This document shows, piece by piece, positions 1-56,646 of a stretch of DNA of 64,000 bases. Under the pieces are notes generated by a model. That model did no database searches. It was given only the letters and a program-made list of their open reading frames with translations, and was not told the origin of the DNA. Positions within the stretch are counted from its first letter, which is position 1. Every line of letters starts with the position of its first letter. A program made the position numbers and the translations under genes. Source of the stretch: Amoebophrya sp. A120 (taxonomy: Eukaryota; Protista; Dinoflagellata); assembly GCA_905178155.1 (NCBI GenBank), contig CAJINV010000005.1, positions 5,665,379-5,729,378 on the forward strand, read 5' to 3'.

Positions 1-3000
1 ATATCTGTCGCAGATAAAGCTGAGGAAACAGAAGTTGAAACGGATATTACCCGAATTGAGGTTCGAAGCCGGTTGCGCCGAACGGGGGAAAGCGGTGTAT
101 TGCGAAGCGGAGGTGAATATCAAGTGCAAAAATGTCTCGGTCTGGAAGATTGCCTGGTTTGTCGTGCATATTTTGCACAACCCATGATGCCTGTAATGAA
201 TGACCTAGCATCAGAGATTTTTAAAAGGGCCTTCTGGTTCTGATGCGTATTCCGCGTGAGAAATGCGGCCCTGTCCGCGTAGCACGAATGGAACTCCTCT
301 TGCTGGTCATGCAATACAGATTTTTTACCTTGTTCCAAAGACAGCATCACAAGTTACAACCTTCCAGACCCAGACATATTTGCATTCCATAGTGAACGAC
401 TTCGTGCAGTTTTCCTCGAGCCAAAATTTCTCAGGTACGACTACAGGAGGCTCTGGAACGCCCCGAGCTGCAGCAGCTGCGAATAGTACAGGAAATAGAA
501 ATCCGGGCGACATAGCGAACACAAGAATGTACTACCAGCAACACCACAGGGAAGCGGTGATTCAAGTTTGCGAAAAGATCCCGACTCTATCACAGGAAAA
601 AGTGTTATACGTTAACGGTTTTCACAGATTCTTGCAGTCATGCATCACAAATGTAGTTCAATATGCATGCTATGCATGACAAATTCTGACACGTCTTGTG
701 ATGCATTTCTGCGTCACAAATTCCGTTAACGTTAACACTTTTTCTTGTGATAGACTCTTCCCCCCATGCAGACCTGGCACAACCAGAAGGGGAGGCTGAC
801 CGCAAATCGGCCGGAGACGGTGGAGATCTCGAATCAGGTAGACAGAATCAAACACCAGATGAAAACTATCGTGCCGACCATTCACGCGGACCTGTTCACG
901 TTGTCGCAGTTAGTGACGTTGCCGTTCATGGAAGCAGAGGACAGGAGGAAGTTGGAGTTCGACGTTTTGGTTTTGCCCAACGGGGCGATTTGCTTCAAGT
1001 GCGTTTCTATCCACGATCCGGCGGACGATAGTGAAATAGATGGCGGAGAGGTCGAGGACGACGTTGATCAGGAAAGAACGGACTCGCTCTCGTTCCCGTC
1101 CAAAGCCGACCTGGCGAATTGCGAAGTGGAGGGTCCGGACGCGAGTCTGATCACAGCTTTTACGTTATCACAAGCAAAAGTGTTAAGGTTGAGGGTTTTC
1201 ACAGATTGGAGCCATGCATCACAAATTTAGCTTAGTATGCATGTTAAGCATGACAAACTTGGACGCGTTTTGGTTATGCGTTGCTGCGTCACAGATTCCG
1301 TTAATGTTACCACTTTTTCCCGTGATATACGCAGCAGGAGCTGAGGTTGAGCGGGAACGAATCCGCTGCCGCAGCGATTCTTGCGGGTTCAACATCTCCG
1401 CCGGCGCTGAAGAGACAACGCAAGGACAGCGACGACATTGCTCTTGCTGGGCAGCAAGATGAAAGAACCTCGAGCAGCGCCAGCGGCGGTGGAAGTTGTG
1501 CGATCGAAGAGGACCATCTGCATTCCCTAGCTGGTGCAAATAAAACATCAACTTCCAGCACGACGCTCCATAACACAGTCTCCCCTTCCTGGGAGCTTTG
1601 CCGGTCCCGCCTCATCCAGGCCGGTCGGGGTTCGCAGCTGTGCGCTTTCGGGCAACGGAAGACGAAAGAGGAGGCAAGTATACACTATTACGAGTTCGCG
1701 TTGAATACCCATTACATCCTGCTCGCAAAGCCCATCGAAGCGTGTTTCAAAGTCCAGAATTTACAGCACAAGCTCGACTTTGGCAAGCAGCAACCGATCA
1801 GCTTGAAGTGTATGCGGTACAAGCCGCCAAAGGTCGGGAATGCAACTAGCGCGCACCCGGAGCCGAAGTTGTATCGGAAGCAATTGCTGCAAATTTGGGG
1901 GGAAGCAATGTGGATATCACAGGAAAAAGTGTTAACGTTAACGGAATTTGTGATGCAGTGACGCATCAGAAAAGGTGCGCAAATTTGTATTGCATAGCAT
2001 GCATAGAAGGCAAAACTTGTAACGCATGACTGCCATTTGTGAAAACCGTTAACGTTAACACTTTTTTGTTTGATAGTGGATGGAGGAAAATCACAGCCAC
2101 TTGGTTTATTTTATCGACGATGGGAAAGTCATACCGAGGACAACTTCTGGCGGTAGTAGCAATAAACCTGCATCACCCGACGACCATCTCCACCCGGATT
2201 TCTATCAAATGTAAAAATGTCTGGGTCTGGAAGGTTGGAACTTGTGATGCTAACTTTGGACTCTAAAAAGATTTGTATTGCATGACCAGCAATAGGAGCC
2301 CAGTTTGTGCTACGCAGGGAGGGCATTTGTCATGCGGGATAGGCATCAGGAAGACCTCTACAAATATGTGATGCCAGACCATGCATTACAGACATCATGG
2401 CTCATGGAAAATATGCATGACAAAATCTCGCAATCTTCCAGACCCAGACATTTTTACGTTTGATAATTTCAAGCAGTTGACAAAAGAACGGATGATAACC
2501 ATCGGGAAAAATTACAATTGGAGCCGGTGCCGAGGGTTCGAATTTGTGGACAAACTATTCTCCTGGATTCATTCAGGCATGATCACTGGGCGTTGCCAGT
2601 GGCGGACGCGGTTTAAACTCTTCTGCAGTTCTACGAGGACAGATCAGCTATTCCCTGAAAATTTTTAACCACCCCCAGCCGGTCATTTTCTGCATGGCAG
2701 GCACTGAATTTACTACATGTTTTGCATGACAAATTGGAAGATTATGGGGATGGTTAATGTTTCAGGGAATATCAGCCGATTGAGACGGATCTGTGCGACA
2801 TGCTGGTCCTGCGCGGTTTAAAATACGATGAGCAGAAGCCAATGACTCGAGCACCAGTGAGCTTGAACTATTTCGGCGGGTTCTGTGATTTGAAGAAGAA
2901 CTACAAAAACGTGGGTAGTAGTACAACAGCCTCCTCTTCTATCGTACAAAAAAAGTGTTTCACTGTAAGGATCTTACAGGTTTTGCATCACAAGTTTGTT

Positions 3001-6000
3001 CTACATGACCGAGAAAATTTGCCATGCGAGGTTCCTAAAGGGAAAACACAGCGAAAAATCCACAGTCTTGCATGTGTAGCAAGACAAACGCTTGCGAGAT
3101 ACACTTTCTGCATTACAAGTTTACAGTGAAACAGTTTTTTCTGGGGATATCTTCATCTTCTGGTCAACGACTTTCCACCACCCCGACTTCCGCTGCGGCT
3201 GCTATGGAGTTCTCAAACGTTACACTCTCAACTGTTACATGCATTTGTCATGCAAAGTTGCCAACAGCCTCCACTTGATGAAGGTGCTTTAGCATGACAA
3301 ATTTTCGAAGGGCTAAGCAGCATGGTAATCTGTGGCAAAAAATCTGTGATGCGAAATATGCTGCAACGTTGCCACTTTTACTGTTGCTGTTCTTGCATTA
3401 TGTAACGTTTGAGAACGCTATAGGTGCTATGTGGCAGAGGACCCCGAGTCTCGGCAGTCAGCACCCGGGGGGATTGCTGCCGAACGAGACAATGTATGAA
3501 ATGCAAATAGGTCTGGGTCTGGAAGAATGCGACATTTGTCATGCTAGTCTGGAATGACTCTGCACTCTGTATTGCGTGGCCACCAAGCGGCCCGCTTGCC
3601 TTTCATGCGAATAAAGCGCAGTTTCTCATGCGAAATACGCATCACAGAAGCACGAAAAGAGTTGTCATGCTTGGCGGCGCAGTACAGAGCACTCTATTGT
3701 TCACGGAGTTGCATCACAAGTTTCCAGACCGCCAGACATTTTTGCGATTGAGACAATGCAGCTGCAGTTTGACACGTTAGTCAAGGAAGTACTGGACGAG
3801 GTAGAAACCATATCGCAAGAAAAAACTGTTTCGCTGTAAATTTGTAATGCAGAAACTGTATCTGAGAAGTGTTTGTCTTGCTATACATGCAAGACACTAG
3901 ATTTTTAGCTGTGTTTTCCCCTAGGAATCTCGCATGGAAAAGTTTCTCTGTGATGTAGAACAAACTTGTTTTGCAAAATAACTTACAGTGAAACACTTTT
4001 TTCGTACGATAAACCACGTCGTCAAAGGCCCCCGCCATTGTAACCGGGAAGAAGATGTCCTCGCCATCGAAACGCCCGCCGAGCGACAACAAGAAGGGCA
4101 CGACTAGCAAAGAAGATGAACCAGAAACGGCGATGAAAGTAGACGAGACCTTGGATGAAAAGCAGAAAGTCCTCGCTTTGTTCAAACAAAAACAGCAGAA
4201 AATCAAATCTCTCCCGAAGATCTACTCCACCATCAGCCCTTTCTCCCCGTATTTCCAGCTTCTCCAAGTGCCCTACGGGTGGCATTTGCGGTACTCCCGC
4301 TCCAGCAATCGGTCCTACTACGAGCACGCAACCTTCAAGCAAGAGAAAATCCAGAATTGGCAAAAGCGTGAGAAGCCGCAACTATTGGCAAAACTGGAAG
4401 AAGAGAAGAAGAAGCTCACTGAGGATGTCGCCTCGAAGAGGCAGCAAGCAAGAGTCGAGCACTACAAGAATGCGTTAAAAGCGCAGCATCCGGACAAGAT
4501 GCGATTTCACTCTTGGACGGAATTGTACAAAACACCCATTGGGTGGCAAGCGAGAATTCCTTCTGACGTGTGGAAAAACGAAATGAGTTTCAAGAAGATG
4601 CCAGATTCGGTGGAGTTTGGTAGGTTGCAGAAACTGGAAAACCAGAAGAAACCGGACCAGAGGAAACTACTCGATCCGGAGGACACGATATGCATCGCAA
4701 AAGTTTATCGTATTAGTGGATTAATTGCATTACAAATTAGCTTAGCATGACTGATGTAATTTGTCATGCTGTTTTAGCTGAGAAATGCTGAACTGCAATT
4801 AGTACACGAGTGCGATACTTTTGCAGTGGATACACGAAGTCGCGGTACGACGTGTACTTTGAGAACTCGTTTTTGGACAAGAGGTTCACCACCGGCGGCA
4901 GTACAGATATCACAAGAAAAAGTGTTAACGTTAACGGAATTTGTGATGCAGTGATGCATCAGAAAAGGTGCGCAAATTTGTATTGCATAGCATGCATGGA
5001 AGGCAAAACTTGTAATGCATGACTGCCAACTGTGGAAAGCCTAATGTTAACATTTTTTTTGTTTGATAACAGGCAGTGGCGCTTCCTCCTCCGCGGCGAA
5101 AACGACGAATAGCACGGTTATTCCGACTGACATGCAGGAGTTGCTGAGAGCGACGGACACCTTTGACAACCGGAACTTTTTCAGCTTGAAAAACTCGACG
5201 ATCAAACAGAACACTTCGCTATCCTGTGTGAGAAAAACGTCCCAACCCCGAAGTTGTCATGCAGATTTGCGATTACAGGAACATTTGTCGTGCGCATCTC
5301 CATGAAATGCATTTCAGATCGTGTTCTAAAATTTGTAATGCTGTAAACAGGATGACTGAATTGCTTTGTCATGCAGCTTCCCTTGCTGACCACACTACGC
5401 TGCAGATGGAAAGAACTTGTCATGCGCAACTCCCAAAACTTGGAGACTTGTCTAGCAGACTTGACTATGGGGTCCTCGTGGGGACGTTTTTACTCAGGAC
5501 ATTCCCTCTCCTCCGTGGACCTTCTCGCCGTGAAACTGCAAAAAGACGAGATTTCCGAAGAGGCCGTGGCGAATTATCTGAAACAGGAGGCAAATCGGTT
5601 TTACACGGCGAACGTGACGGACTGGAATTTGCCGTTTAAATCCGCAGACCAGTCGACCAGGGATTGGTTGGTCAGTCAAAACGGGATTTTTCTAGTGAGA
5701 AAGTTCGGCCACGAGAGGAGTATCAAGGATTTTACCAGTCCGGAGTTGGCGAAAGTGGATATGGACGACTGGAGACACGAAAAACGGGAACAACCAGAGA
5801 CTCTCGCTATCAAAGTGAAAAAAAAACCCTCCCCCTATCGAAACGAAGTTTCTGATGCTGGATTTGCGAACACAAATCAGATTTGTCTTGCTGGAGAGGA
5901 CTACAGACGCATAGTAATCCGGAGCAGAGCGGCTTTGGCATAGGCACTTAGCATGAAGAACGTCCGCACTGCAGGCCCAACAGCATGACAAAACGCCTGC

Positions 6001-8541
6001 AAAATGCGGCGGAGACTGTGGAGCTGCCTTCTTGCAAGACAGACGCGATCTGTGGCCACAAATCAGCAACGCAAATTGTCGAAGACGTGACCACGCGTCA
6101 ATATGTGTATGGGGAGGGGGGATTTTTCCGTGTGATACTCGTGGACGACGCGGCTGTTGAGGACGTGTTTGCTGCGCTGGATGGGAATAACGCCGGGTAT
6201 TTTCATGGGGCAGGACGAACAATGTATGGCGAGGAAGTAGACCAAGGATGGTCACTGGAGCGGGAGCTTTTTGAACAGCAGCAGGAGATAAATAACGAAA
6301 ATGGAGGCGGACCTCCTCCGCAGTTGTTCTACAACGAATCTGTACTGCAATTTCAGCAGCAAGTGCAACAGCAAATTCAGGAGTACCAGTTGCAATCTCC
6401 GAATTTTGATGTCAAAGAGGACGAGGACCAGCAGCAGCATCGTGATTTCTCACAACCGCAGGCGCACCAGCAACAAGCGCATCAACTGGAGGGCGCGCAT
6501 CAGCATCTTCAGGAGCAATACGGGTGGTGGAGCTCGCCGGAGGAACAGCAGCGTGTCGGGTGGAATAATATTACCGCTACATCGCCCTGTTCTTGTGAAG
6601 GAAACCAAAACACTTTGTTCAATGACAGTCTGCGTCTGTCCCGGTTGCAGAGGAGCTCGGAGGACTTGTTATCCACCGGGAAAAAACACCCATCCCCATC
6701 CAATTTGTCATGCACAACATGTGTATCAGTTCAACAGGGCCCGCGGTTCAACAATGTACCTACCAGTTCAATACCGCCCCGGGGCCTAAATATCCTAGAA
6801 CAAGCAGGCCATTTGATATGCTCGGCGCCAAAAACATATGCAGGTGGAGGAAGGAGTAGGGGGGGCGTTCCTGACCCAAAGGTACGCTCCTGATCTCAGT
6901 GGTACTTAGTCGACCCGGGGGGCCAGGTATTACCTGACCCCCGGTTCGGGTCTGTGCCTGCAATGCTGCAGCGAAGTCGTTTTAGATGGTGCTGCAGCAC
7001 AGCTGCGCGCACCTTGATGGGCGCCAAAGGCCCCAAGTCTGTCGCTACAGAAAACGGTAGCCATGACTGCGATCGGCCCTAGTGTTCGACCGCTTTCTGT
7101 TTGAAACCAGCGCCGCGCACACAGCTTCGGTCTTCGTGCGCCCATTGATCGGAAGCAGCGTCCCTAAATCCTACGGCCGGCAGCCGTGCCACCGTAAACA
7201 ATAGTCGCGCAGCGCTTCGCGCCTCACAAACCAAAATCGCGCGCGCGCGCGCCAAAATACAGGACCTTTTGGGGCTTGTTGCGTGCACATTCTTTTTGCG
7301 ACATATGGCGCCCGCAAGATATGCTCTGTAGCTCATCGGGATTCTTTTCTCCCGTTGCCCGCTCTTTTTTTCGGGGTTTGGCACGTGCACTACGTATGGT
7401 TCTCTTCTTTTTCGTATGCCCGGAACCTTCACGAACTAAGTAGTTCGTGAACTGGGGTACACTCTCGAACCGATTCACATGCATAAAATCCGCTAGTTGT
7501 CATGCAAAAAATGGATGGGGATGGGTGTAGAAGTCTTTTCCTAGATACTTATCTGAGGAAGAACATTTAGAAGACCGCCTGAACGACTTACTCCCGTACA
7601 GCTTCTACGGAGGGGATAGGATGAAGGACAACGGTACAACTACTAGGGGCGAACAGCAGGAGACGAACCAGCGAGCTTCAAAAATATTGCCAGACGAGCC
7701 GCGACATCATCAACATCATGACGCGGTGGAGGAACCTGTTCCGTTTAATAGCGAAGGATCCTTTTTGCTGCCTCTGGAAGTAGGAGAGACGCAGAGAATC
7801 AACGCGGAGACTACACCAGGAGGCACCGCTCGTCGTGCCAGCGAGGATCATCCTCTCCTAGAAGAGCACCAACAGGACGAGGACGAGGACGAGTATGACG
7901 AAGCGGCGGAGGCCCGGGAGCTCGCTAAGGAATTGGAAAACGGTCTCGGCGCTCTGGTGTTGGAATCGCCAGAATTGCTGGTCTCGTTGGCAGAGAGCTT
8001 GGAGAAGGAGGAGCAGGAAAAAATGAAAAAGGAGAAGGAGGAGGCTGAAGCTCAAGCTGCAAAAGTAGTAGAGGACAAAGAAAATATTATCCCCACAACT
8101 AGTACAACTGGTGGCCGTGCACCAGCTGCACAAACGAGAAGTTGTCCAGGGGCGCGGCGTCCTAGTTCTCGCGATAAAAAAGCAGCAGAAGACGACTACG
8201 ATTTTGAAGCAGAATTGCAGTCTCCCACGGATGTGACCGCGAAGAACCAGCAGGATACGACGGTAAATAACACTTCTGCAGGACGAGCGGCGTCAAGCGC
8301 CAAGGATCAACAGCAGAGTAAATATCTCAAACTGCCACTGGAGGAGCCAGACGAAGCGGGTGATGATGATGTCGAAGATGATCACGATTTGGATGACCAC
8401 TGGGATCTTCTTCGCGGGGAGGACGATGACGATCATTGGGATGGATTGAACTCGCCCGGGGCCGCTGGGGATAATTCAGAGGCTCCTGAGCACAAGAACA
8501 TCAATAAGCGAAAACTACTACACAAGCGAAAGCTTGTATGA
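1..8541 (+). CDS. Large multi-exon protein (5' end outside window) with a WW domain; 15 introner introns
   Basis: Removing each TIR element plus one 5-bp repeat joins the ORF fragments into one frame (e.g. CEAEV|NDFVQ, KIPT|LPPMQ, RSSEDL|SEEEHL) ending KRKLV* at 8541. WW-like motif VPYGWHLRYSRSSNRSYYEH at about 4265-4330. Confidence 0.75.
118..391. mobile_element. Introner, family A
   Basis: TIR TGCAAAAATGTCT(C/G)GGTCTGGAAG; TAT...ATA ends; direct repeat GTGAA/GTGAA. Confidence 0.9.
588..752. mobile_element. Introner, family B
   Basis: TIR TATCACAGGAAAAAGTGTTA..CGTTAACGG; repeat GACTC/GACTC. Confidence 0.92.
1166..1327. mobile_element. Introner, family B
   Basis: TATCACAAGCAAAAGTG...CACTTTTTCCCGTGATA; repeat TACGT/TACGC. 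Confidence 0.88.
1915..2075. mobile_element. Introner, family B (inverted relative to 588)
   Basis: Family B TIR; repeat GTGGA/GTGGA. Confidence 0.92.
2203..2465. mobile_element. Introner, family A (inverted relative to 118)
   Basis: TIR TATCAAATGTAAAAATGTCTGGGTCTGGAAG; repeat ATTTC/ATTTC. Confidence 0.92.
2649..2771. mobile_element. Introner, family M
   Basis: TATTCCCTGAAA...TTTCAGGGAATA; repeat TCAGC/TCAGC. Confidence 0.9.
2940..3149. mobile_element. Introner, family C
   Basis: TATCGTACAAAAAAAGTGTTTCACTGTAA...TTACAGTGAAACAGTTTTTTCTGGGGATA; repeat TCTTC/TCTTC. Confidence 0.9.
3203..3422. mobile_element. Introner, family F
   Basis: TATGGAGTTCTCAAACGTTACA...TGTAACGTTTGAGAACGCTATA; repeat GCTGC/GGTGC. 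Confidence 0.88.
3495..3753. mobile_element. Introner, family A
   Basis: GTCTGGGTCTGGAAG...TTCCAGACCGCCAGAC; right end AGA; repeat CAATG/CAATG. Confidence 0.87.
3811..4011. mobile_element. Introner, family C (inverted relative to 2940)
   Basis: Family C TIR; repeat AACCA/AACCA. Confidence 0.9.
4689..4832. mobile_element. Introner, family E
   Basis: TATGCATCGCAAAAGT...GATACTTTTGCAGTGGATA; repeat CACGA/CACGA. Confidence 0.9.
4908..5068. mobile_element. Introner, family B
   Basis: Near-identical to 1915-2075; repeat ACAGA/ACAGG. Confidence 0.9.
5220..5501. mobile_element. Introner, family H
   Basis: TATCCTGTGTGAGAAAAACGTCCC...GGGACGTTTTTACTCAGGACA; repeat TTCGC/TTCCC; homologous to 52084. 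Confidence 0.87.
5808..6137. mobile_element. Introner, family G
   Basis: TATCAAAGTGAAAAAAAAACCCTCCCC...GGGGAGGGGGGATTTTTCCGTGTGATA; repeat CTCGC/CTCGT; homologous to 52476. Confidence 0.88.
6670..7547. mobile_element. Introner, family D, carrying a nested insertion
   Basis: AAAAAACACCCATCCCCATCC...GGATGGGGATGGGTGT; repeat CTTGT/CTTAT; siblings at 11512 and 13153 are only 138 and 114 bp. Confidence 0.85.
6722..7477. mobile_element. 756-bp non-coding insertion nested in the family D introner
   Basis: Imperfect TIR TGTATCAGTTCAACAG / CTCTCGAACCGATTCA (12/16), flanked by CATG on both sides; absent from siblings. Confidence 0.7.
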
Positions 8542-9383
8542 TCATCCACCTCGCGGCACACTTTCATCCATTTGAATTTGCACTGTGACAAGAAACTTCG
8601 TGGTAGCTTCAAGTTGATTGTAGGAAGTTGAAGTGATAGAGTATCTGACTAACTCTAGGTCTAGATCAGCGTCACTGGGGGCTTCTTTACGAGAAGGAGA
8701 AGATGACAGAAAGGTATTAATTTTCATCGCAGCGCGTTCTCATTATCATATCATGATGTTTGCATGCGCATTTTTTGGCAACGACCATGGTGCGTCTTGG
8801 TCTTGGTTTCAGGGCAGCAGCCGTGAAGAATTTGGTATCTGCAGCTGCTGTCGTTCTTGCTGTCAGTGGTGCAGCTCCTTGCTCTGTTCATCTAAGGATC
8901 GTTTCAACATCGTGCAAGGCTTAGTTTTCAAAGTCGGCGGCGGAAAAAGAAATGCAAATAGCGTTACGCAGTGGATGGCTTCTTCGCAGTCACTGTGCGT
9001 CTGCCTGTACCTACTTTTGTGGAACAGCACGATGATTTTTATTCTTAGGACCCACATCTTTTTTGTGTTGCTGCTTTTTCGAACAATGTCTCGTGCGTTT
9101 TTGTTTTTTTTTCAAAATATAACCGTCTTGACACTTGTGCACTTGTTTTGTGATCATCTTGCTCATTGTGTTTAGTGTGCGTAACCTGTCTGTAATAGTA
9201 GATGGGCTAGAGGGCGCGCCACGATTTTCCAAAGCCTTGCTTGTTTATGTTTCGCTCAACAAAAGGAACTGCCTCAATACCTGCCTGTGCAGAGTCAACA
9301 AAGTTATCATCTGCATCACTGAAGATTGCAAGCTGCTCACCTTCAAGTCTATTCTGTTCTAGATCTAGTCTGCTTTTTGAAAA

Positions 9384-12300
9384 ATGCGCGGTTGTGACGA
9401 TCCAGCATCCGTCGCTGCTGGTCTCAACGTCGTTTCTTTCACCTACAATTGCGGTGGCGTGGAGCCCCCGCAGGAGGAAAATTTAAAGCAGAAGCTACAG
9501 GAAGAGATTCGGGAAAATCTGCTCCAGCAGAGGATTGATTGCAGTCGCAACAGTGATGGAAATGATCTTGTTGATTTTGCTGGTGCGCCTGCGGCCCATT
9601 CTGCTTATATTACCGTCGAACAACAAGCCGCAAATCCATCCACAACTGGAGGCACAACGAGGAGCGCTGGTGACCACAGTGTGTGCTTTACCCCGGACAT
9701 CGTTGTGATCAATCTGCAAGAATGTTGCCCGCTAGCCCTGGCCGCTTTAGGCAACAACGCTTCGGACTCCTACGGAAACAAATGGCGAGACGTTTTCATT
9801 GAGGCTCTGGGCTACGGGCCATTAGACCGATTGACCTGCAGGTTTTACACCCAGTTGCACGGCGGGAAGGGAGCTTCAGGAACCGACGTTGCACCTGCGC
9901 AAGAGCTCGATATAGAGGAAAAATGCGAAAATTCCGCCGGTGATCAACATGTTGTATCGAGTTGTTCTAGGGCTCATGTCGCGTCCTCGTCCTCGTCTGC
10001 GAGCGCCGTTGCGGCTGCTAGTGACGTAGCTTGTTCCAAAAAGTGCTCCTCAAAATCGTCAGTAAGCACAGCGGCCTCGTCTTCTTCTAGTTTTGTTTCT
10101 ACGGCAAGCAGCACTGGTGATTGGAAACAACTCGCAGCTTCCGCTTCGAGCTCTTCCAGGCTAGAAAGGGAAAGACAAATATGCTCATCGCCGGATAGCA
10201 ATTGCAGTTCAAATTCGAGCGCCTCGACATCATCGAGTAGCGCTTCATCCTCTTCGACATCTTCCCCGTGTTGGACTACGACGGAGCAAATCAGCCCCGC
10301 ACCTAGAGCCAGTCCACCCGACGAGAGAAGGGATGAAATAAGCCCGAAGGATCCACCAGTGTCGCCGTCGCCCGACGCATTAGTGAACGAGAAAGGCCGC
10401 CGCGATCTGTTCTTCCCACCGGCCTTATCAACATCGGGAGGGGAAGATGTAAATAAACACGCACCACAAATCGCATCAAACGGAGCGGAAGACGAGACAG
10501 TTACGACAAACAGTTGTGGTTCATCTAGCAGCTGCTTCAGCGCTTCAGCGTTATCTTCAACCGCAGTGACGCCAGGGAATTCCAGTTCGAATTCCTCTTG
10601 TTCTAGCTTTCTCCCGCCCGGCGGCGCAGGTATGGTAGTGTCAGGATCGAAATCGACAAAGTTGAAACATCAATTTGCGATGCATAAAATGCAATCCACA
10701 GAATGCCTGTCTTGCAGAGTAGGCAAGGTAGGCAGATTGTAAGCCTGATGAGGGGTAGAACTAGAAACTGAGCTGCTAAAGTAGCATGACAAAAGGGGTC
10801 TTCCTTACCCAAACAGCATGACAAACTGGATTTCGGTTCTACCCAAGTTTGTCATGCACCACTTAGAAACTGGGTTACAACTGGCATCCATTTTATGCAT
10901 GACAAACCATTAACGACTTCAATCCTGGCACTTCCATAGCAGGCAGTCGCTTTTTACAAGTTCCTCAAGCCGGGGGTGCGAAGGTGCGCAGTGCGGGAGG
11001 TCGTGCAGTTGTTGGGCAGCTGACCGCCGAGTCTTCCTCTGCGAGGACAGGCAGCATGACAACAGGAGGTGGAGGCTTTGGGTCCCGCCGGGCAACCGCG
11101 ATCACTACGAATAAGATGCAGAAAAATTATAACCGCCGGCCGACACAGCTACCGGAAGAGCTGCAGGGCGGGTCGTTTGGAAGTACTTCTAGCTGCGCTC
11201 AGACTCAGACGCCTGCTGCAGAGGGCAAACAGGACGAAATAATAATAAAAGAAGTTCTTGCAAAAGTTGGTAAAAAATCCCGACGACGGCGCGGCACAGA
11301 GAGCAGTAGCACTGGGGGCTCCTTCATCGACCTTGCTGACTACGAAGACGCAGCCTGTCGCTCTCCCTCGTCACACAGTTGCCAGCAGAACTTCTCATGC
11401 GAAACGCCGAAAGTAGTAAAGGTGAACAAGCAAGGTGGTAAAGCAGGCCCCAGCTGCTCAGGCGGTAGAATCGACGACGACCACTTTTCAACATCCGAAA
11501 CAACATCCGACTATCCAGGAAAATGAAACACCCATCCACATCCGATTTGTCATGCGAAACACGTATCAAAAAAAGAAAATTTCTGAAGATAATGCTGTGT
11601 TTGTCATGCAAAAAATCGATGCTGGGGTTGGATTTTTTTTCCGTCAATACCAACAGTAGCCTCGCTGCGGATGTGGAGCACAGTCCAAGGTGCACCGTTT
11701 TGTATCACAGGTAAAAGTGTTAACGTTAAACGCTTTTCACCGATAATTGCAGTCATGCATCACAAATGTAGCCCAATGCGCATGTTATGCATGACAAATT
11801 TTGGCACGTTTAGTGATGCATTGCTGCATCGCAAATTCCGTTAACGTCAAGAACACTTTTTCCTGTGATATTTTGAGCGCGACGGCAAGAAATTCCATAA
11901 GCAAGGCCATCAGACGGGAGGAGAGGAAGAATAAATCATCACTCCTGCTGCATCAAAAGACCACTAGCACACGGACAAAATTCAGTGGTTCGTCATCATC
12001 CACGACCGCCGCCCACACCGGGGAATGTTATCACTCCTTGGCGTTCGCCCCTATGTCGCAGCAGGTGACGACGCCTCCGAAACTAGGCTCCATCTCGTCC
12101 AAAACCGGACTTTTGCAGCCGCCCGCGCTGCTGAAAGTAGGAGCAGCTCATCCGGGAGGAGGTGCAGGCAATGCAAGTGCTTCGCCTTCGCATTCTCCTC
12201 TCAAGCACATGATCCACCAGTCACGACGCTGCCTGAGCCCCGGTCGGGTAGGACAGGAAAGTTCTCTGAACACATTGCCAAGCACGTGTAGCTATCCTGT

Positions 12301-19150: not shown

Positions 19151-19492
19151 TTTAGAAAGACTGGCGTGGATGAAGAATGAAGAGTATCGATTCATCGGAG
19201 AGTAGGAGAAGTTGTTGCACTGGACATCTCTACACATATGCAGCGTCGTTTGCACCAAATCTTGATGTCGAGTTCGAGCAAGAATACGAGGAATGTTGTT
19301 CTACAACAATTATTTCCTCATCTTTTTGTAATATTATTGCAGCGATTGCACAACGCGGCCTCCTCCCTAGATATCGATTGCGGTGTCGAGCTCGAGCTAT
19401 GCCCAGGAGCAGGACAAGCATAGGGTCGTGCTGCAGTTCTTGGAGCTGCTATTCATATACTTAGACTTTACCACTTTTAGGTCCACTCCCCT

Positions 19493-19560
19493 GAAGATCC
19501 TGCAAGTGAAAGATCCTGCAAGTGAAAGATCCTGCAAGCGAAAGATCCGGTTTGAAAGAT
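19493..19560. repeat. 16-bp tandem repeat (GAAAGATCCTGCAAGT), about 4 copies
   Basis: Seen directly in sequence. Confidence 0.8.
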
Positions 19561-19786
19561 CGTTGCCTAAAAGACAACCGCCTGAAAAATGACAATAAAG
19601 TAGATCCTGCATTTAACTAGCGTGATGAAATGCTCTGACAGGAGAGATGATGGTCCGGCGCCGGGCGCCTAGTAATAACCTGACAGGAGTACTAGAGATG
19701 AGGAAGCTATGCTCTGACAGGAGAGAAGATGAAGGGTCAATGACAATGAAGCGGCTCTGGTAGAAATACATGGATCAACAACCAGA

Positions 19787-20490
19787 ACTTTTTGTCTTTG
19801 CCTCAGCCGTTCTGCCGCCTAGGAGGGAATCGCTCCTCACCCGTGGGGAGGCGGTTTTTTTGGTTTTTGCGGTCATTTCGCAAGCAGCAGACGCTGCCCA
19901 ATTTTCAGAAATTGCAAGACTTTTTGTCTTTGCCTCAGCCGTTCTGCCGCGTACGAATCGCTCCTCACCCGTGGGGAGGCGGTTTTTTTGGTTTTTGCGG
20001 TCATGTCACAAGTAGTCGACGCTGCCCAATTTTCGGAAATTGCTAGACTTTTTGTCTTTGCCTCAGCCGTTCTGCCGCGTACGAATCGCTCCTCACCCGT
20101 GGGGAGGCGGTTTTTTTGGTTTTTGCGGTCATTTCTCAAGCAGCAGACGCTGCCCAATTTTCAGAAATTGGAAGACTTTTTGTCTTTGCCTCAGCCGTTC
20201 TGCCGCGTACGAATCGCTCCTCACCCGTGGGGAGGCGGTTTTTTTGGTTTTTGCGGTCATTTCTCAAGCAGCAGACGCTGCACAATTTTCAGAAATTGCA
20301 AAACTTTTTGTCTTTGCCTCAGCCGTTCTGCCGCGTGCGAATCGCTCCTCACCCGTGGGGAGGCGTTTTTTTTGGTTTTTGTGGTCTTTTTAAAAGCAGC
20401 CGACGCTGCCCAATTTCCAAAAGTTGCAAGATTTTTTGTCTTTTCCTCCGCCGTTCTGCCGGTTACGAATTGCTCCTCGGCCGCGGGGGT
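19787..20490. repeat. 128-bp tandem satellite, about 5.5 copies
   Basis: Unit starts at 19787, 19919, 20047, 20175, 20303 and 20431; high identity, degenerate at both ends. Confidence 0.92.
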
Positions 20491-36770: not shown

Positions 36771-36850
36771 GTGGCGCACACACCCACGCTTGTAGTGGCG
36801 CACACACCCACTACGACTACATAGTGGCGCAAATACCCACTCCCTGTAGT
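36771..36850. repeat. Three copies of (TA)GTGGCGCA(C/A)A(C/T)ACCCAC in the LINE inter-ORF spacer
   Basis: Seen directly in sequence. Confidence 0.75.
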
Positions 36851-37039
36851 CCGTCCATGGTTCTGCTCTTCTCTTGTTTCTTCTCTGTCACTGGCCTACT
36901 GCATGTTGTTTGTTGATCGCTTGCAAATCTCGTTTTCCTGCACCCTAGCTAAAATTACTGCTGTATCTTCACCTGCTGTTGTAAGTATCTATTCCCCACC
37001 GCTGCACGACACAAAAAATCGTCTTCTCACCGTACGAAG

Positions 37040-41500: not shown

Positions 41501-44427
41501 ACACGTAGAACTGCTAGAAGGTCTTGCTCTCGGAACAAAGAAGGGCGCAGGAGCTCGAAGATTTCGTCGAAGCAAGGCCGCAGGAACGATCGCAGCCACT
41601 CGACTTCCTCTAGTAGAAAAAGCGCTTGCTCTTCGACAGGAGGTCGCTCGAGCCGCAGCAGCTCCGCAGATGATGCCCGGCAAACAACCGGGAAGAATCA
41701 AACCACTGTTAGTACTACCACCCCATCCGGCTTTATTGCGGCCGTGTCGCCGAAAACCTCTCATCTTGCGGACAAGATGAAAGTCAGCCTTCTACAGAAC
41801 TCCACCGTGGAACAAACATCGCCAGGCACAACTATCCGAGGACTTCCAGCGAGAATGATTTCCAGCCCGTGGGCGAGCACCACGCTCGATCTCAATCAGC
41901 CGGCCATTTGGTTTGCAAAAGCCTGGAGGGGGATTCGGCTATTCCCAAAATTGGAACCGACGAGTGACTACTTCATGCCTGTACGAGAAGCACGAGGAGG
42001 GAAGAAATCAAAGACAAGTTCTACAGAAAGAGCTGCCCAGGAGGGCTTCCTCTCCCAAGTCGACTACTTCACGGAGTTAAGCACCAACGTTTTCCAACGG
42101 TTGCTCGACTCCTCGCCAGATGCGAAAAAACTTTTCGAAACGCGCGGAACAGAGCTGGTTGCAGAGGGCCTGATGGACATGTTTCGCCCGAGGGGAGGAC
42201 GGGGAAGATTGCATCTAGAAGACGATAGTCAGAACCTCCATCAACCAGTTTTCTACTTCGCACACATCTTTTTTCTCAACGTGCTCTTCGCGGATCTGTA
42301 TCCCATCCTCGGCCACGGCCCGGACCCGGCGTTGTATTCCGTTGTGCATAAAAGAAGCAGCCAAGACGTCATTTATTTCAATGAAAAATGCCCTCATCCC
42401 CGAACTTGGGAGCATTTGTATTGCAAACCTTTCCAAATAAAACACTCGCCCTCTTGCATCTATCAACATCACAGGTTTCCAATCGTGAATAGCAAAAATT
42501 TGTATTGCAACAGACCCCAGCAAGAGCGGCGCTTGTCATGCAAGCGATGCGATACACGCCTAGACTCTGCATCAGAAGGATTCATATACATATTCCTTTC
42601 ATGCATGACAAAAAGTTTTCATTTGGCAACTTCGCACCACAAATTTTTGCAATTTCAGGGGTGGGGGGCACTTTTCACTGTAATATCATCCCGGGGGGAA
42701 TCTGTGCGGATTTGCGGCAAAGAGAGCACTTTTGCGACGGAGATCGGGCGGAGATGTTGGCGGGGGATTGTTTCGAGAGTTTTGCGAGTGACGTGGCAAG
42801 GCCGTTGCCGCAGTTCCCAATGGAAATTGATGTAAACCCGCAGGTGGAGAGTGTTGCGCAGATGATGAAAAAGCTGCATTTGAAGGTCAAGGTGGAAAAA
42901 GAAAAGAAGGAAAATGATAAACACAGTTCTTCCTCGCCTTCAGCTGGAGCCGGTGCTAGTGCTTCTTCTTCTTCGGACAGGACGCGTACTACTTGCTCGG
43001 GAACAGGAACAGGATCGGGATTTGCTGCAGCTACTTCGTCTAGAAATAAAATGGGAAGTTGTGGAGGCGTCTCCTCCAGCTCCAGCAGCTCGCCGTTATG
43101 CGGCATTTCTCCCACCAAGAAATCGACCGAACGTGGCAACACGGCCAGAAGCGCCTTTTTCTCGCTTGCAACGACTGTCGCACCGGCTGAAGACGAGAGG
43201 CCGCTTGAGATTCTCGCGGAAGATGAAAAGATGGAGGACGTTGAGGCCCTAGCCAATGACGAAATCGATGGCATGCTTGAGAACCAAGAGGAATCTTCTG
43301 CATCTGACTCCGAGAAGATGAACTACGAGGAACCGGAGCGGTCGGACGAGGAGGATATCGAAGAAGAGCCCTTCGACGACATGTTAGACCTCGGCCCAGA
43401 ACATCCATTCTGGAATCAAGGAAGACCACTTCCCGAGGACGAGCGGATGAATGCCGATGTTGACAGATGGAGAGCGCCTATTTTTAGGCTTCCTTTTCAC
43501 CTCCCGCCCGGCGGTGCAGTCAGCAACAGAACCACGCCTGGCAAAATGTGCGACCAGCTGTATTTCTCCTTGTCCGATGCGAATCTCGACCCGAGGGCAG
43601 GAGCTTCATCTACTTTGCAGCACGTGCTCTACCATCCCACATCCGGAATGCCCGTGCCGGTTGAAGAAGCCGACTTGGAAAATAGCCAAAATCCTCTCCC
43701 CCCACCCTACCACCACCCTTATACCGGAATAGACAACAGCAGTACTCTGCTAAACGCAGCTGAAAATATGCTGAAAAGAGCGGAAGTCTTGCTCCCCTAC
43801 GCTTTTCAGTGGGAGCTGCTGTTTCGCTCGATTCCCGACGTGGTCCGGGACCACCAGCCCTGGGGAAGGAGAAACGCGAGTGGAAAAGAAGTCGCGGAAG
43901 ACGTGCAAGCGAGTGGAAAATTATTGAAGCTGTTGGTGGAGACCGCGGCGCGGGTGGCGAAGGCGGAGGAGGAAAAAAAGCGGGGGGCAAGAAGTTCAAA
44001 AAAATTCGGTGGAAGTAGTAGTAGACGAGGGACATCATCATCATCTTCACAAGAGCACCACGACGACGACGAGGACAACGTCCAGCACCTCAAAAATCAC
44101 AACCAAATCAAGTACTACGTAAGCAGCTTCTTGCACGAATTGTCCGTGGCCGTCAGAGAAACGAGAGACGAAACCAACCTGCTCTGGCGGATTTGTGTTG
44201 CGCCGAGGCTACAGCTTGACAGAGGAAGTGGTAAAGAATCAGGGAAAGCACTACAAGCGCATTTGCCGGAGCACGTTCCGAGGAGGCTGCAGCTGCGGCT
44301 AGACATGCTGAATTTTATCGAAAGACATGTGTTGCAGGATAGAGGAATTGCTGCGGTGTTGATGGACGGGCACTACACAGATTCGTCGGATGGAGAAGTT
44401 GTAGCCACGTTTGCGGGTACTATTTGA
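38523..44427 (+). CDS. Large hypothetical protein with hydrophobic N-terminus, 2 introner introns and one in-frame TAA (39180-39182)
   Basis: ORFs 38523 and 39294 share a frame; joins REQS|NSNTACW and QDVI|PGGICAD restore the frame to the stop at 44427. Confidence 0.65.
39660..39809. mobile_element. Introner, family E
   Basis: Right TIR GAGTGCGATACTTTTGCACAGCATA; repeat AGAGT/AGAGT. Confidence 0.9.
42374..42685. mobile_element. Introner, family O
   Basis: TATTTCAATGAAAAATGCCCTCATCCCC / GGGGTGGGGGGCACTTTTCACTGTAATA; repeat TCATT/TCATC. Confidence 0.88.
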
Positions 44428-44457
44428 TTTTGAAGTGGCAGAAGATACTTAAAACTG

Positions 44458-45733
44458 TATCCTGAGCAAAAGTCTACCCAGGGCATAGTTGTCACGAGAA
44501 AACTTGCTTTGATTTGGTTACCAAATCACCAAAAAAAGCTCACGCATTTGGTGAGCGCCGTAGCATGCGGATTAGCATCTTATCCGTTTCCCCGTGTCGA
44601 GTTATAGACCGGGGCGGTGGAAAAAATCGCATCCCTGTCCTTTCCTTGGATGCGCAGCAGCATGCGGATTAGCTCACGGGCGTGACCCGCGAGGACAGCC
44701 ATACCATGCGGATTCAGTTTTTTTGCAAAAAGTGCCGACTTTTTTGCCCGAAAAAAGCGAAACCCGACGGCACGGCCGTGGTTTGGGTTTCGCCCACTAA
44801 ATGAATCCGCATGCTATGGGCCCCCTCGAGAGATCGGCCCAAACGCGCGAGCCGAAGGGCGCGCCATACCATCGGCAATGTGGGCACAGGCCCCCCCAAG
44901 GGGGGCCATAGCATGGCGATTCGGGCGGGCTTTTTTTTTTGTGAAGTTTTGCGATTTTTTCTGGAAAAAAACAGCAAACACGACGGCACGGCCGTGGTTT
45001 GGGATTCGCCCATTACGCGAATCCGCATGCTATGGGCCCCCTCGCAAGGTCGGGCACAAAGCGCGGGCCGGGGGGCGCGCCATGCCATCGGTTCGGGAAT
45101 GTGGGCCAGATGTGCCCATAATCAAGATGGGCGAGCTTTATGGTCAGGTCTCGCCAGATATTTGACAATATTCGGAAACACAAAACAACCAGAAAGCGAA
45201 CAGATTGCTCGCCCATCTTGATTATGGGCACATCTGGCCACAGCATGCGGGATGGCTCATTTTGGCAACGCGGCGAACTGCTTCCCCGAGTTTGTTTCAT
45301 TTTGGCAACGCATTCCCGATGGTATGGCGCGCCCCCCGGCTCGCGCGTTTGGGCCGATCTCTCGAGGGGGCCCATGGCATGCGGATTCACATAGTGGGCG
45401 AAACCCAAACCACGGCCGTGCCTTCGGGTTTCGCTTTTTTTGCGCAAAAACGTCGTCGCTTTTTGTAAAAAAACTGAATCCGCATGGTATGGCGGTCCTC
45501 GCGGGTCACGCCCCTGAGCTAATCCGCATGCTGCTGCGCATCCAAGGAAAACACAGGGACGCGACTTTTTCCGCAGCCCTGGTCTATAACTCGACACGGG
45601 GAAACGGATAAAATGCTAATCCGCATGCTACGGCGCTCACCAAATGTGTGAGCTTTTATTGGCGATTTGGCAACCAAATCGAAGCAAGTTTTCTCGTGAC
45701 AGCTATGCCCTGGGTAGACTTTTGCTCAGGATA
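44458..45733. mobile_element. Intergenic foldback non-autonomous DNA transposon with inverted arms of about 420 bp
   Basis: TATCCTGAGCAAAAGTCTACCCAGGGCATAG...CTATGCCCTGGGTAGACTTTTGCTCAGGATA; repeat AACTG/AACTG. Confidence 0.93.
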
Positions 45734-50971: not shown

Positions 50972-53473
50972 ATGTTGGTGGATACTCGAACTTGTAACCT
51001 AATTCCGCTCTCAGGCTGCTCGGCTGCTGAAGACGGAGGGGATAATTTTGTCGAAAATATTAAAAACCCTTTTTCCGGCACTGTCAGCACCAAAGACACA
51101 AGCACCAGCTGCGACATGGAGCTGACCGATACCAGCATTGGCAGCAGCGCCGCAGAGCGGGCAGCACCACAGCCAGCTGGCTCGTGGTCGTGCACAAGGA
51201 CTCCGACGGGCCCGGGCGCAGCTTGTTTTACGGGAAAAAATAAACGGCACTTTTTCCAGCGTTGCGGGTCCTCTTCCTCCTCCCTGTTTACGTCGTATCC
51301 GGAAGATTACCAGAACCAATTATCAACTGCCTGCAACAGCCCTTATCAGGGGATGCAGGACGAAACCCCCCTGCAGTTCTTTGACCAGGAGTGTCACGCA
51401 CCAACTGCTTTCGGGTTTTGTGGGGGCGCTGGTGGAAAGGATTGTGCGGAGGCCGTCGTGCAGGACGAGGACACGCAGCACTGCTATTCCGCGCAAAGCG
51501 GGGGGCAAGAAGACAACCTCCACCAACATGAGCCGCAGACACAATTTTTTCCGCAATACAATTTCTGCAACGGCGGGCAGCAGATGCTGCTGGGCCACGC
51601 ATTTTCATCATCGCAACAGGAGAGTTTGTGCCACCTGTCGCAGCAGGGGCAGCAGTCTTTCGTGAACCAAGTGATCTATCGTCTCAACAGCGAGAATCTG
51701 TTGTCGCAGCAAAGAGAACATCAGTGCGAACAAATGCAAATGGTCGCTGAAGAAGAGGAAATTTCAGATGATGCGGATGAAGCTTTTCTCCATTTCCCCC
51801 GTCAGACGCTGAGCTGCCCGCTGCAACCCGTGCTGCCATTGTTGTTGGACGACGAGGAGCAGGGTGAGTTGACGCTAAGTGAGGACGGGAAGAACTACAC
51901 TATCCCGGGCCGCGGTTCTTTCTGTCTCGAAGGAGGAAATGATGAAGACTGCCGCACCTCCGCTGCCGGCGCTGCTTGCCCAAGCACGATAGGTACTACT
52001 ACCCGAGGACGTCAAAGAACGTCGATGAGCGCAGGAGTTCTTACAACGAGCGGCAATGAAGAAGATGACCAACTGTTATCATCTATTCCGGGTAAAAACA
52101 TCCCCACCCCAGAGTTGTCATGCAAATTTGCATGCCAAAAAAGTTTCTCATGCGAAGCCCCATGAGAAGCTTTTTCTAGTCGTGTTTTGGGATTTGTCAT
52201 GCTAGAAATAGCATGATATGCTAGATCTGCGATGCTGCTGAACTAGCTAAACAGGATTACACTACGAGGACAAACCTGTCATGCGAAACAACCAAAGTTG
52301 GCCGATTTGTCTAGCAGATTCTCCACGTTGACTCTGGTATGGGGGCGTTTTTACTCAGGATAACATCTCCTGTGCCGCCCTCCAGAACGTTTTTCAATCG
52401 CGCTCGTTCCTGCAGCGAGGGGGATCTCCGCAATTTCGCCATGAGAATTGCAGCACATGAAGAAGAAGATGAGAATATCAAAAGGAAAAATCCCCCCTCC
52501 CCACATCAAAACGAAATTTCTGATGCTGGATTTGAGTACACAAATCAGGTTTGTATTGCGGGAAAGCATTGCAGTCAGATCCCCAGGCTAGGTAGGGGCG
52601 TACGCGTCTAGTTGTTCAGCATGGCAAGCGGCTCCCCTTTAGGCTCAACAGCATGACAAATCGCTTCCATAGTGGGGCGGAAGCTTCTGCCCTTGTCTTC
52701 TTGCAATACAAATGTGATTTGCGACCTCAAATCAGCAGCACAAATTTGCGGAAACATACCTTTTCGATATGGGGAGGGGGGATCTTTGCTTTTGATAGAG
52801 AACAACAATTACGAGGACAACATCAACACCAACACGACTTTCACGCGTGAGTCCTGCGCGATGAACGTGATGATGTCGAACTCAAACTCTCCGGATAGCA
52901 GCACGACTTCCCCTATCAGCGCCTCTACCCCCGGGGTGGCCAAAACTCCTGCGGCCCTGACAATCATCAATCTGCTGGCAAAGGATCTGCAGGGACAGAA
53001 GAAGGTAGAAGTAGATACTGGCGGCCGCGGCCAACATTTGAATTTATCCCCCATTGACACGGCGACCAGCCGCACCAGTGGCCGGACGGTCAGTTCGGAA
53101 GAGGCGGGTGAGGATGGGCAATTCAACAGCTCCAGCACGAGCAATTCGGTTGTCGAGTACAACATGACAAGGACTACGTCGAGCTTCAACCTGTCCCATG
53201 GCAGCATGACAAACACCCAACTGCGGTTCCACCCCAGGAAGAACACTTTCGAAATGAACAAGAGCAAGCTGCTCTCTTCCTCGATGGACTTGGAGAATTT
53301 TGTCGTCAACAACTCCGGCCGGGTATCTACCAATCAAAACAATGATTTTTGCACGCGGCACAGCACGTATTCCGATCTATCCGCTTTCCACCCGATTCTG
53401 AATCCAGATTCGAAGGTGGTGCCGCCGGGCGAAATCGACTTTGTCATTAATAGCAGCTCGTCCTGCAGCGGAA
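50972..53473 (+). CDS. Hypothetical low-complexity protein, at least 2 introner introns; 3' end unresolved
   Basis: Joins QLLS|SPVPPS and EDE|NNNYED restore the frame; a damaged family E left end starts at 53474. Confidence 0.6.
52084..52362. mobile_element. Introner, family H
   Basis: Homologous to 5220; repeat TCATC/ACATC. Confidence 0.88.
52476..52797. mobile_element. Introner, family G
   Basis: Homologous to 5808; repeat GAGAA/GAGAA. Confidence 0.9.
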
Positions 53474-56638: not shown

Positions 56639-56646
56639 CAGCAGTG

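Follow-up and report, generated by a model that had tools for sequence, protein, structure and literature searches.

The introns of Amoebophrya sp. A120 are more than 60% non-canonical, and 29,850 repeated introns in 1954 families have been described in this strain (Farhat 2021, PMC7789003). According to that genome paper, the inverted repeats of the A120 introns consist of TAT, then seven less conserved bases and then at least three A; direct repeats of 3-5 nucleotides (nt) overlap the intron borders, and a figure of the supplement has 5-bp repeats. A hairpin was predicted, U1 small nuclear RNA (snRNA) was undetected and the position of the intron border "remains unknown". Gozashti 2025 (PMC12130899) lists 58 introner families in A120, mostly as "TIR DNA, Unknown" (TIR, terminal inverted repeat), with automated duplication lengths of 2-6 or none. 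Two of its entries are more specific: family 38 is recorded as "Ginger; 5-bp TSD, TA/TA termini" (TSD, target-site duplication), with a length of 808 bp and remnants of Copia/Gypsy integrase-like open reading frames (ORFs), and family 19 as "5, manual inspection". Here we describe a 64-kb stretch of the A120 genome, referred to as the window, in which 39 such elements interrupt or adjoin the genes.

The elements, their TAT ends, the short direct repeats and the non-canonical removal are already in print, and their finding in this window is a rediscovery. An earlier note on this DNA had stated that Amoebophrya genomes are reported to have non-canonical introns with inverted and direct repeats, which agrees with Farhat 2021 and with the identity of an A120 protein encoded in the window. 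What is new here are refinements: the cut register, a strict 5-bp rule that extends across families and an internal motif that the families share. In the literature beyond Farhat 2021 and Gozashti 2025, no published cut rule or transposase for Amoebophrya was found; Figures S19-S25 of Farhat 2021 may show more on repeat lengths. How the elements are removed from RNA is a question that the A120 genome paper leaves explicitly open.

Element ends and target duplication

The window was scanned for inverted repeats without any constraint on the end sequence (pairs at least 12/16 complementary, 90-700 bp apart). This unbiased scan returned 4526 pairs. Perfect 5-bp direct repeats flank 24 of them, against a chance expectation of about 4, and TAT...ATA ends are found in 17 of the 24. 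A curated census, compiled from a targeted listing and from the inspected additional matches of a similarity search that used the first 32 elements as queries, comprises 39 elements, which blastn sorts into 13 sequence families. Their sizes are 114-330 bp, besides one element of 878 bp (6670-7547) and one of 1276 bp (44458-45733). The ends are exactly TAT...ATA in 35/39, and the other four are off by one base at one end (AGA end at 3495-3753, ACA end at 5220-5501, TAC start at 14292 and TAA start at 15277). The flanking 5-bp repeat matches at 5/5 positions in 22 elements, at 4/5 in 12 and at 3/5 in 3; the weakest repeats are those of 14292 (2/5) and 20891 (1/5).

The direct repeat is exactly 5 bp long, and no other length fits. 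Perfect repeats are found at 22/39 elements when a length of 5 is tested and at 0-2/39 for lengths of 2-4 and 6-9, and the identity per column is 32-36/39 inside the five repeat columns versus 6-15/39 outside them. The duplicated bases lack any composition preference in the window elements and in the related loci described below, and hence define no target consensus. Terminal inverted repeats, a target duplication of fixed length, many copies (13 families in the window and 204 more elements in related loci) and element ORFs that match no Pfam family above the cut-off are all features of miniature inverted-repeat transposable elements (MITEs). The elements of the window are thus real and MITE-like, with a 5-bp target duplication.

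Another 204 elements, in roughly 0.5 Mb of related public contigs, obey the same end rule. They come from 150 loci (511 kb) of a metagenome collection, most on contigs of one public assembly, that were retrieved with a 17-base word of the family-1 inverted repeat. These loci contain 31,914 inverted-repeat pairs, among which 263 distinct pairs have perfect 5-bp flanks (about 31 by chance); TAT...ATA ends are present in 204 of the 263, and 112 of those 204 elements do not contain the query word. The related-locus elements cluster with 11 of the 13 window families and form six additional clusters without window members; for family 2 and the 1276-bp element, no copy was drawn from the related loci. 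Several fetched loci (L003-L075) are bacterial or phage DNA with sigma-54 activator, terminase and T4 baseplate domains and represent chance matches; they carry no elements and were left out of the 204.

The families also share signals within the elements. Across the 78 termini, T1, A2 and T3 are present in 76-78, G9 in 53 and A at positions 11-14 in 60-69, together with C or G at position 4 and T at position 16. A terminal motif, TAT-N6-8-AAAA, is common to 10/13 families; families 5, 9 and 10 have the TAT only and lack the A-run. An internal motif, GCAT[G/T/C]ACAAA, usually has a T before and after it, giving TGCAT(G/C/T)ACAAAT. This TGCATNACAAAT motif is common to 10/13 families and to 32/39 elements, and 52 of its 58 hits in the window fall within elements, against 9 expected from the 15.6% of the window that the elements occupy. 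It occurs in both directions, often two to four times per element, typically starting 31-55 bases from an end, and is found in 156/204 related-locus elements (85/112 of those without the query word and 71/92 of the others). Repeated subterminal motifs are typical transposase-binding sites, and a role of the internal motif as such a site is a lead. The shared termini and internal motif imply that the families are not wholly unrelated.

When all elements are deleted together with five bases each, seven open frames emerge, of 1543, 1849, 321, 327 (minus strand), 718, 1590 and 721 codons, which contain 38/39 elements. With the elements kept, the longest frames in these stretches reach a few hundred codons. 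The sole element outside the frames, 44458-45733, lies 34 bases beyond the stop codon of the 1590-codon frame. When single elements were examined with all others deleted, removal of the element plus five bases gave the longest frame across the junction at 36/39, compared with removal of the element plus three, four, six or seven, and at 33/39 the open frame extended 100 codons or more to either side. The end rule put forward in the earlier note, TAT...ATA with a 5-bp direct repeat, is therefore confirmed, as is its statement that deleting an element and one repeat restores the frame. Its counts (35 elements; 21, 11 and 3 with perfect, 4/5 and 3/5 repeats; about 14 families) are close to those obtained here (39; 22, 12, 3, 1 and 1; 13); its description of the families as unrelated, by contrast, was overstated, given the two motifs that are each common to 10/13.

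Removal from transcripts and cut register

Transcript evidence was obtained from four sequencing runs (X1-X4) of one sample from one study, whose RNA nature was guessed by automated labelling and which were mapped on bases 1-20000 of the window. The share of sampled words is 37-44% in X1-X4 and 74-76% in likely DNA runs. X1-X4 have zero depth at 9339-10005 and 19344-20000, both of which are covered by the DNA run X5; these gaps support X1-X4 being RNA. At 15/15 joints that are listed or readable from contig pieces, X1-X4 contigs skip exactly the element plus five bases, and all 15 introns seen in the RNA contigs of the first gene are the elements described here. A single contig of 3827 bases spans 12 consecutive element introns and contains no further intron, because its exon lengths sum to exactly 3827. 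Contigs of X5 (about 26x depth) run through elements 1166, 4689 and 13535; the joint table of X5 is full of cross-joins between repeat copies, so that joined forms in DNA are not readable either way.

The joints do not conform to the standard spliceosomal pattern. Within the equivalent positions of the 15 RNA joints, GT-AG, GC-AG or AT-AC ends are impossible at every one, and just 3/39 elements offer canonical ends in at least one of the six registers, in line with the earlier statement that most elements cannot be given GT-AG ends by sliding within the repeat. The canonical terminal dinucleotides of spliceosomal introns (GT-AG or GC-AG for U2, AT-AC for U12) are accordingly not what delimits these elements. 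The mapping of RNA junctions that the earlier note proposed thus gave removal of the element plus five bases at 15/15, with GT-AG ends at none of these joints. The elements are absent from the RNA, removed without a scar and without GT-AG ends.

Where the cuts fall can be expressed as a register, the count of bases of the 5' repeat copy that stay in the exon, which has six possible values. A perfect duplication conceals the cut site, and an imperfect one reveals it. At 1166, 4908 and 5808, the RNA contigs carry the fifth base from the 3' copy, which limits the register to at most 4; at 1166, a TAG stop would moreover arise under register 5, and this is the only element at which a frame-based register test is informative. 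At 5220 and 6670, the fourth base comes from the 5' copy (register of at least 4), and at 3203 the second base does (at least 2). An annotated protein, P0001, informs three further junctions: it excludes register 5 at 26788 and at 27869 (at most 4 in both) and registers 0-2 at 27626 (at least 3, with base 3 or 4 from the 5' copy). At 27626, GT-AG ends would be available at register 1, which P0001 excludes. Register 4 is the sole value compatible with all nine informative junctions, and none of the 15 RNA joints contradicts it; under random choice among six registers, nine such outcomes have a probability of about 0.015. These observations suggest that a single register, 4, probably applies, in which the intron is N1-TAT...ATA-N4 and the cuts precede TAT by 1 base and follow ATA by 4. 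In the splice columns of Dataset S2 of Gozashti 2025, the entry of family 160 agrees with 1/4 and that of family 183 with 3/2; both were set aside, because positions inside perfect repeats are arbitrary. A fixed register, if true, predicts every junction, aids gene annotation and narrows the search for the machinery.

Two further RNA runs, X8 (686 reads) and X9 (5 reads), derive from another copy and are uninformative on this locus. All 686 reads of X8, an RNA-seq run of 2026, match partially and only at 17710-17823, with 95-99% identity. One foreign flank before 17710 is shared by 583 of the 686, and 229 end at 17823, where the read ends resemble what we take to be a complementary DNA (cDNA) template-switch adaptor. 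The signal would come from another family 9 copy, outside this locus and abundant in RNA, in which an RNA ends within the element.

Spread, mechanism and rival explanations

The ORFs of the window and of the related loci were searched for the enzyme that might have spread the elements. Pfam searches of 99 window ORFs (23 + 76) and of 137/148 ORFs of at least 230 codons from the related loci, 236 ORFs in all, revealed no transposase or integrase domain, and a reverse transcriptase at 32702-36619 is the sole mobile-element domain that the window yielded. The search proposed in the earlier note, for long TAT...ATA elements that encode a DDE transposase, yielded just three elements that obey the rule (length above 650 bp, TAT...ATA at the ends, a 5/5 direct repeat and at least 17/24 matches in the inverted repeat), of 834, 1104 and 1276 bp, none of which is coding. 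No autonomous partner was found in the 64 kb of the window and the 511 kb of related loci. The proposal of one transposase superfamily, made in the same note, therefore stands on the uniform ends and duplication length and gains nothing from the ORFs of either set. Transposase-driven spread was doubted by Farhat 2021, who reported putative transposases only in strain A25. The uniform 5-bp duplication and the shared motifs argue, contrary to that published doubt, that most of the intron load stems from one enzyme family. We infer that one transposase family spreads all element families, and our best guess is that it is an integrase-like DDE enzyme, because retroviral-type integrases and the elements TDD-4 and TDD-5 make 5-bp duplications and because family 38 of Gozashti 2025 has integrase-like ORF remnants.

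The explanation that we favour, and consider reasonably likely as a whole, is that the elements are the published A120 introners, spread by one kind of transposase and removed from RNA by a fixed 1/4 cut that is set by the predicted hairpin. The elements would be non-coding, hairpin-ended copies of DNA transposons that lie inside coding exons, flanked by 5-bp target duplications, and one kind of transposase likely spread all copies. The hairpin of the inverted ends would bring both borders together, and its foot would act as a ruler that places the cuts 1 base upstream and 4 bases downstream, such that the transcript would lose the element plus exactly one copy of the duplication. Because 1 + 4 equals the 5-bp duplication, the sequence present before insertion would be restored whatever the target, and insertions would therefore be tolerated at any coding position. 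Elements of this design would explain the harmless gain of introns by the tens of thousands, wherever in coding sequence they land. Copies of one family occur in both orientations on the same gene strand, and the signal must therefore sit in the symmetric ends. Predicted RNA folds of 37 elements have a median z of -5.8 versus shuffled controls, with at least 10 symmetric terminal pairs in 31/37 and T1 paired with the last A in 28/37.

Several points weigh against this explanation. Two elements are almost without a flanking repeat (14292, 2/5; 20891, 1/5), the A-run is missing from the sequences of families 5, 9 and 10, and no transposase or integrase was found in the window or in the 511 kb of related loci; Farhat 2021 doubted spread by a transposase. 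Terminal pairing is predicted to be weak in some elements that are nevertheless spliced: in the minimum-energy fold, 4908 has five terminal pairs and 5220, owing to indels, none in register. The RNA label of X1-X4 is a guess and concerns one sample. The register is based on nine junctions in two genes, three of which come from an annotation that may have been built on the same RNA data.

The common features could also arise without a common enzyme, if several unrelated transposases had inserted the elements and a filter for survival by splicing had left those with TAT...ATA ends and a 5-base repeat inside genes. Survivorship could bias the view, as 38/39 window elements lie in coding frames; families 5, 9 and 10 share TAT alone; and the A120 introners are spread over diverse transposon classes in Gozashti 2025, where the automated duplication lengths vary between 2 and 6. 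Those automated lengths are uncurated, however, and the two A120 TIR rows of that dataset that were inspected manually give 5. A splicing filter, moreover, cannot fix the duplication length, because this is set by the transposase and not by selection, and the length is exactly 5 in 22/39 window elements and in the 204 others. The sole element outside the frames (44458-45733) follows the same rule, and the internal motif is common to 10/13 families. We regard such a filter as an unlikely source of the rule. A different question is who cuts. The same anatomy and register would be compatible with a dedicated endonuclease that cuts and a ligase that joins, as in tRNA splicing, with no spliceosome involved. 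Structure-reading nucleases cut at a set distance from a helix; the inferred register leaves the base at either end of the intron arbitrary, which is awkward for spliceosomal catalysis; and removal is independent of element orientation. Bulge-helix-bulge enzymes, on the other hand, cut symmetrically, unlike the 1/4 offsets. U1 went undetected in A25 and A120, whereas a third Amoebophrya genome has GT-AG introns (Farhat 2021); this apparent loss tracks the presence of such introns, which suggests that the spliceosome itself changed. Transposon-born non-canonical introns of tunicates, furthermore, use an altered spliceosome (bioRxiv 10.1101/2025.08.15.670264). Removal by endonuclease and ligase thus seems doubtful to us, and we see about an even chance that the catalyst is a spliceosome working without U1, an option favoured because U1 is undetected in both strains with these introns while the third, GT-AG, genome is reported as normal.

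Two further readings deny that the elements are removed from RNA at all. In one, the mRNAs keep the elements and reverse transcriptase jumps between the 5-base repeats across the hairpin. Hairpins between short direct repeats are a classic substrate for template switching, and all of the RNA evidence is cDNA-based and from one sample. Jumping predicts, however, that all five bases come from the 3' copy, whereas at 3203, 5220, 6670 and 27626 a base among positions 2-4 derives from the 5' copy; the elements break the host frames, up to 15 per gene, so that no protein would be possible from retained forms; and only the spliced form is listed across the 12 consecutive introns of one contig. This makes an artefact of reverse transcription very improbable. 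In the other reading, the elements are excised from DNA in expressing cells, in the manner of the internal eliminated sequences of ciliates, and the RNA is copied from an element-free template. Exact removal of TA-bounded elements does occur in ciliate DNA elimination, and the RNA label of X1-X4 is a guess. Yet the elements are present in DNA contigs whose depth, about 26x, is that of single-copy sequence, joined forms in the DNA run not being readable; the coverage of X1-X4 is incomplete and drops to zero in two bins where the DNA run has reads; and nuclear dimorphism is not known in this organism. Excision at the DNA level is scarcely credible on this evidence.

Individual elements, neighbouring sequence and known systems

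The elements are given in the order of the window and on its plus strand unless stated; imperfect TSDs are written as 5' copy/3' copy, and RNA joints as the two exon bases that are joined, with the number of bases skipped. The first, 118-391 (family 1, 274 bp, TSD GTGAA 5/5), is so close to the window edge that the frame test is limited, and an RNA contig piece begins at 392 after it. Three copies of family 2 follow: 588-752 (165 bp, GACTC 5/5; joint 582>753, skip 170), 1166-1327 (162 bp, TACGT/TACGC), around which the RNA pieces 753-1160 and 1328-1764 are contiguous, and 1915-2075 (161 bp, GTGGA 5/5; joint 1909>2076, skip 166). The next group comprises 2203-2465 (family 1, 263 bp, ATTTC 5/5; 2197>2466, skip 268), 2649-2771 (family 3, 123 bp, TCAGC 5/5; 2642>2771, skip 128), 2940-3149 (family 4, 210 bp, TCTTC 5/5; 2934>3150, skip 215) and 3203-3422 (family 5, 220 bp, GCTGC/GGTGC; 3199>3425, skip 225). 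Element 3495-3753 (family 1, 259 bp, CAATG 5/5; 3485>3750, skip 264) has the AGA 3' end; the AGA in place of ATA also duplicates the four bases before the TSD, which results in a 9-base direct repeat, and the RNA still skips the element plus five. It is followed by 3811-4011 (family 4, 201 bp, AACCA 5/5; 3804>4011, skip 206) and by 4689-4832 (family 6, 144 bp, CACGA 5/5; 4682>4832, skip 149), which lies inside the DNA contig 3987-4935. Four elements with imperfect TSDs complete this series: 4908-5068 (family 2, 161 bp, ACAGA/ACAGG; 4902>5069, skip 166), 5220-5501 (family 7, 282 bp, ACA end, TTCGC/TTCCC; 5218>5506, skip 287), 5808-6137 (family 8, 330 bp, CTCGC/CTCGT; 5802>6138, skip 335) and 6670-7547 (878 bp, with family-3 ends, CTTGT/CTTAT; 6668>7552, skip 883). 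The last of these has an interior of other sequence (about 780 bp, 6722-7496), on either side of which stands a direct copy of 17 bases from the family-3 centre (6705-6721 and 7497-7513). A nested copy of the same kind was considered for this interior and rejected, as it has no TAT...ATA ends.

In the next stretch lie 10631-10938 (family 9, 308 bp, GCAGG 5/5), 11512-11649 (family 3, 138 bp, CCGAC/CCAAC), 11703-11870 (family 2, 168 bp, TTTTG 5/5), 12293-12447 (family 6, 155 bp, GTAGC/GCACC, 3/5), 13153-13266 (family 3, 114 bp, GGAAG/GGATG) and 13535-13744 (family 2, 210 bp, GTGAC/CTGAC), the last inside the DNA contig 13184-14124. They are followed by 14082-14242 (family 2, 161 bp, AGTTC 5/5), by 14292-14514 (family 10, 223 bp, TAC start, TSD 2/5), where removal of the element plus five restores the frame, and by two copies of family 6, 14835-14983 (149 bp, ACGAG 5/5) and 15277-15437 (161 bp, TAA start, CTGGG 5/5), with an RNA piece beginning at 15437. 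Family 9 then contributes three elements: 16437-16741 (305 bp, AAATG 5/5), before which an RNA piece stops at 16431, and 17368-17675 (308 bp, CAAGA 5/5) and 17710-18018 (309 bp, GGGCG 5/5), both within the 321-codon frame and near its start. The last element with an RNA joint is 18165-18446 (family 1, 282 bp, ATCGG 5/5; 18159>18447, skip 287). Two elements lie in a minus-strand frame. One, 20891-21025 (family 11, 135 bp), has a flanking repeat of 1/5, and removal of the element plus five keeps the frame; the other is 21472-21626 (family 6, 155 bp, GATTT 5/5). Element 20891-21025 has proper TAT...ATA ends, and the closest entry among database proteins is a paralogue (82% identity), the alignment of which stops exactly at both element borders.

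Back on the plus strand, protein P0001 bears on 26788-26924 (family 11, 137 bp, CCTCG/CCTCA; fits registers 0-4, not 5), 27626-27805 (family 6, 180 bp, GGTTA/GGACA; fits registers 3-5 only) and 27869-28077 (family 4, 209 bp, GCCAA/GCAAC; fits 0-4, not 5). The remaining elements are 39660-39809 (family 6, 150 bp, AGAGT 5/5), 42374-42685 (family 12, 312 bp, TCATT/TCATC), 52084-52362 (family 7, 279 bp, TCATC/ACATC) and 52476-52797 (family 8, 322 bp, GAGAA 5/5), together with the foldback-like element 44458-45733, which has no assigned strand. This element is 1276 bp long, has TAT...ATA ends, a TSD of AACTG (5/5) and inverted arms of 423 nt that are 93% complementary, and its ORFs match no Pfam family above the cut-off.

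Over 323 residues, the translation of exon 28084-29052 matches a 670-residue annotated protein of Amoebophrya sp. A120 with 100% identity. Exon 9381-10625 gave no match in a protein look-up, exon 21032-21466 gave only the paralogue (82-87% identity) and a fragment, and a library-wide protein search with exon 12453-13145 gave only an 82-residue fragment and a 70% relative. At 27406-27501, within a Pro/Lys-rich tandem repeat, the annotated A120 protein is without 32 residues (96 bases, with an ambiguity of 1 base). No element and no GT-AG pair is present there, and the gap may be a difference in repeat length or an annotation artefact rather than an intron. The reverse-transcriptase domain (RVT_1, E 1e-11) belongs to an unbroken frame of 1306 codons on the plus strand, 32702-36619, which is likely a non-LTR (long terminal repeat) retroelement; unlike the neighbouring host genes, it contains no introner. 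The composition shifts at 54000-64000 (GC 0.54-0.58, AT skew about -0.3), and the long minus-strand frames tested there (796, 606 and 880 codons) match no Pfam family and are free of introners. The sequence at 56647-57461 is a run of N with low-GC surroundings.

Transposon-born introns of a comparable kind are found in larvacean tunicates (Fritillaria), where many MITEs, small non-autonomous transposons, became introns without GT-AG ends. The tunicate introns have preferred end dinucleotides, tied to an altered U2AF and to snRNA modification, whereas the end bases are arbitrary here. The closest system is that of Farhat 2021 (PMC7789003). The window belongs to the A120 genome, and its elements have inverted repeats with TAT and an A-run, a short direct repeat (at least 4/5 in 34/39) and non-canonical removal; the introners described there have lengths near 240 nt, strain-specific families, non-canonical sites and a predicted hairpin. 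In contrast to the 3-5-nt direct repeats of variable position in that description, the repeat here is exactly 5 bp and one register fits, and where that paper found no family-specific motifs, an internal motif is shared across families in the window.

Among the families of Gozashti 2025 (PMC12130899), A120 family 38 resembles the elements in its terminal inverted repeats, 5-bp TSD and generation of introns, a match by description only; unlike family 38, no window element has an integrase-like ORF. The Ginger and TDD transposons make duplications of 4-5 bp, and TDD-4 and TDD-5 combine 5-bp duplications, as found here, with terminal inverted repeats and an integrase-like DDE transposase (Bao 2010, PMC2836005). 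Ginger termini are TGTNR, whereas those of the window are TAT(C/G), and Ginger1 targets CCGG and Ginger2 RTATAY, whereas no target preference is seen here. The elements were not filed under Ginger, because the TGTNR termini are lacking and no transposase is found among the 236 ORFs.

The nonconventional introns of Euglena provide a parallel for the removal step. Knock-in genetics has established for them the code 5'-N3-CAG...CTG-N5-6|R (Nomura 2025, PMC12501133). As in Euglena, the introns of the window have no GT-AG, their ends pair, and the cuts would fall at fixed small distances outside a terminal motif. The CAG...CTG pairing motif with N3 and N5-6 spacers is not present here; the motif is TAT/ATA, the offsets are other ones, the lineage is unrelated and the register is inferred from nine junctions, so that the likeness is one of logic only. 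In both systems, the spacers would sum to the duplication length, 3 + 5 = 8 in Euglena and 1 + 4 = 5 here. We tentatively propose, giving the proposal slightly less than even weight, that a positional code N1-TAT...ATA-N4 is read from the hairpin in parallel with Euglena, and that the TGCATNACAAAT repeats bind a single transposase or excision factor. If this is true, two distant protist lineages have independently matched the geometry of RNA excision to the stagger of a transposase.

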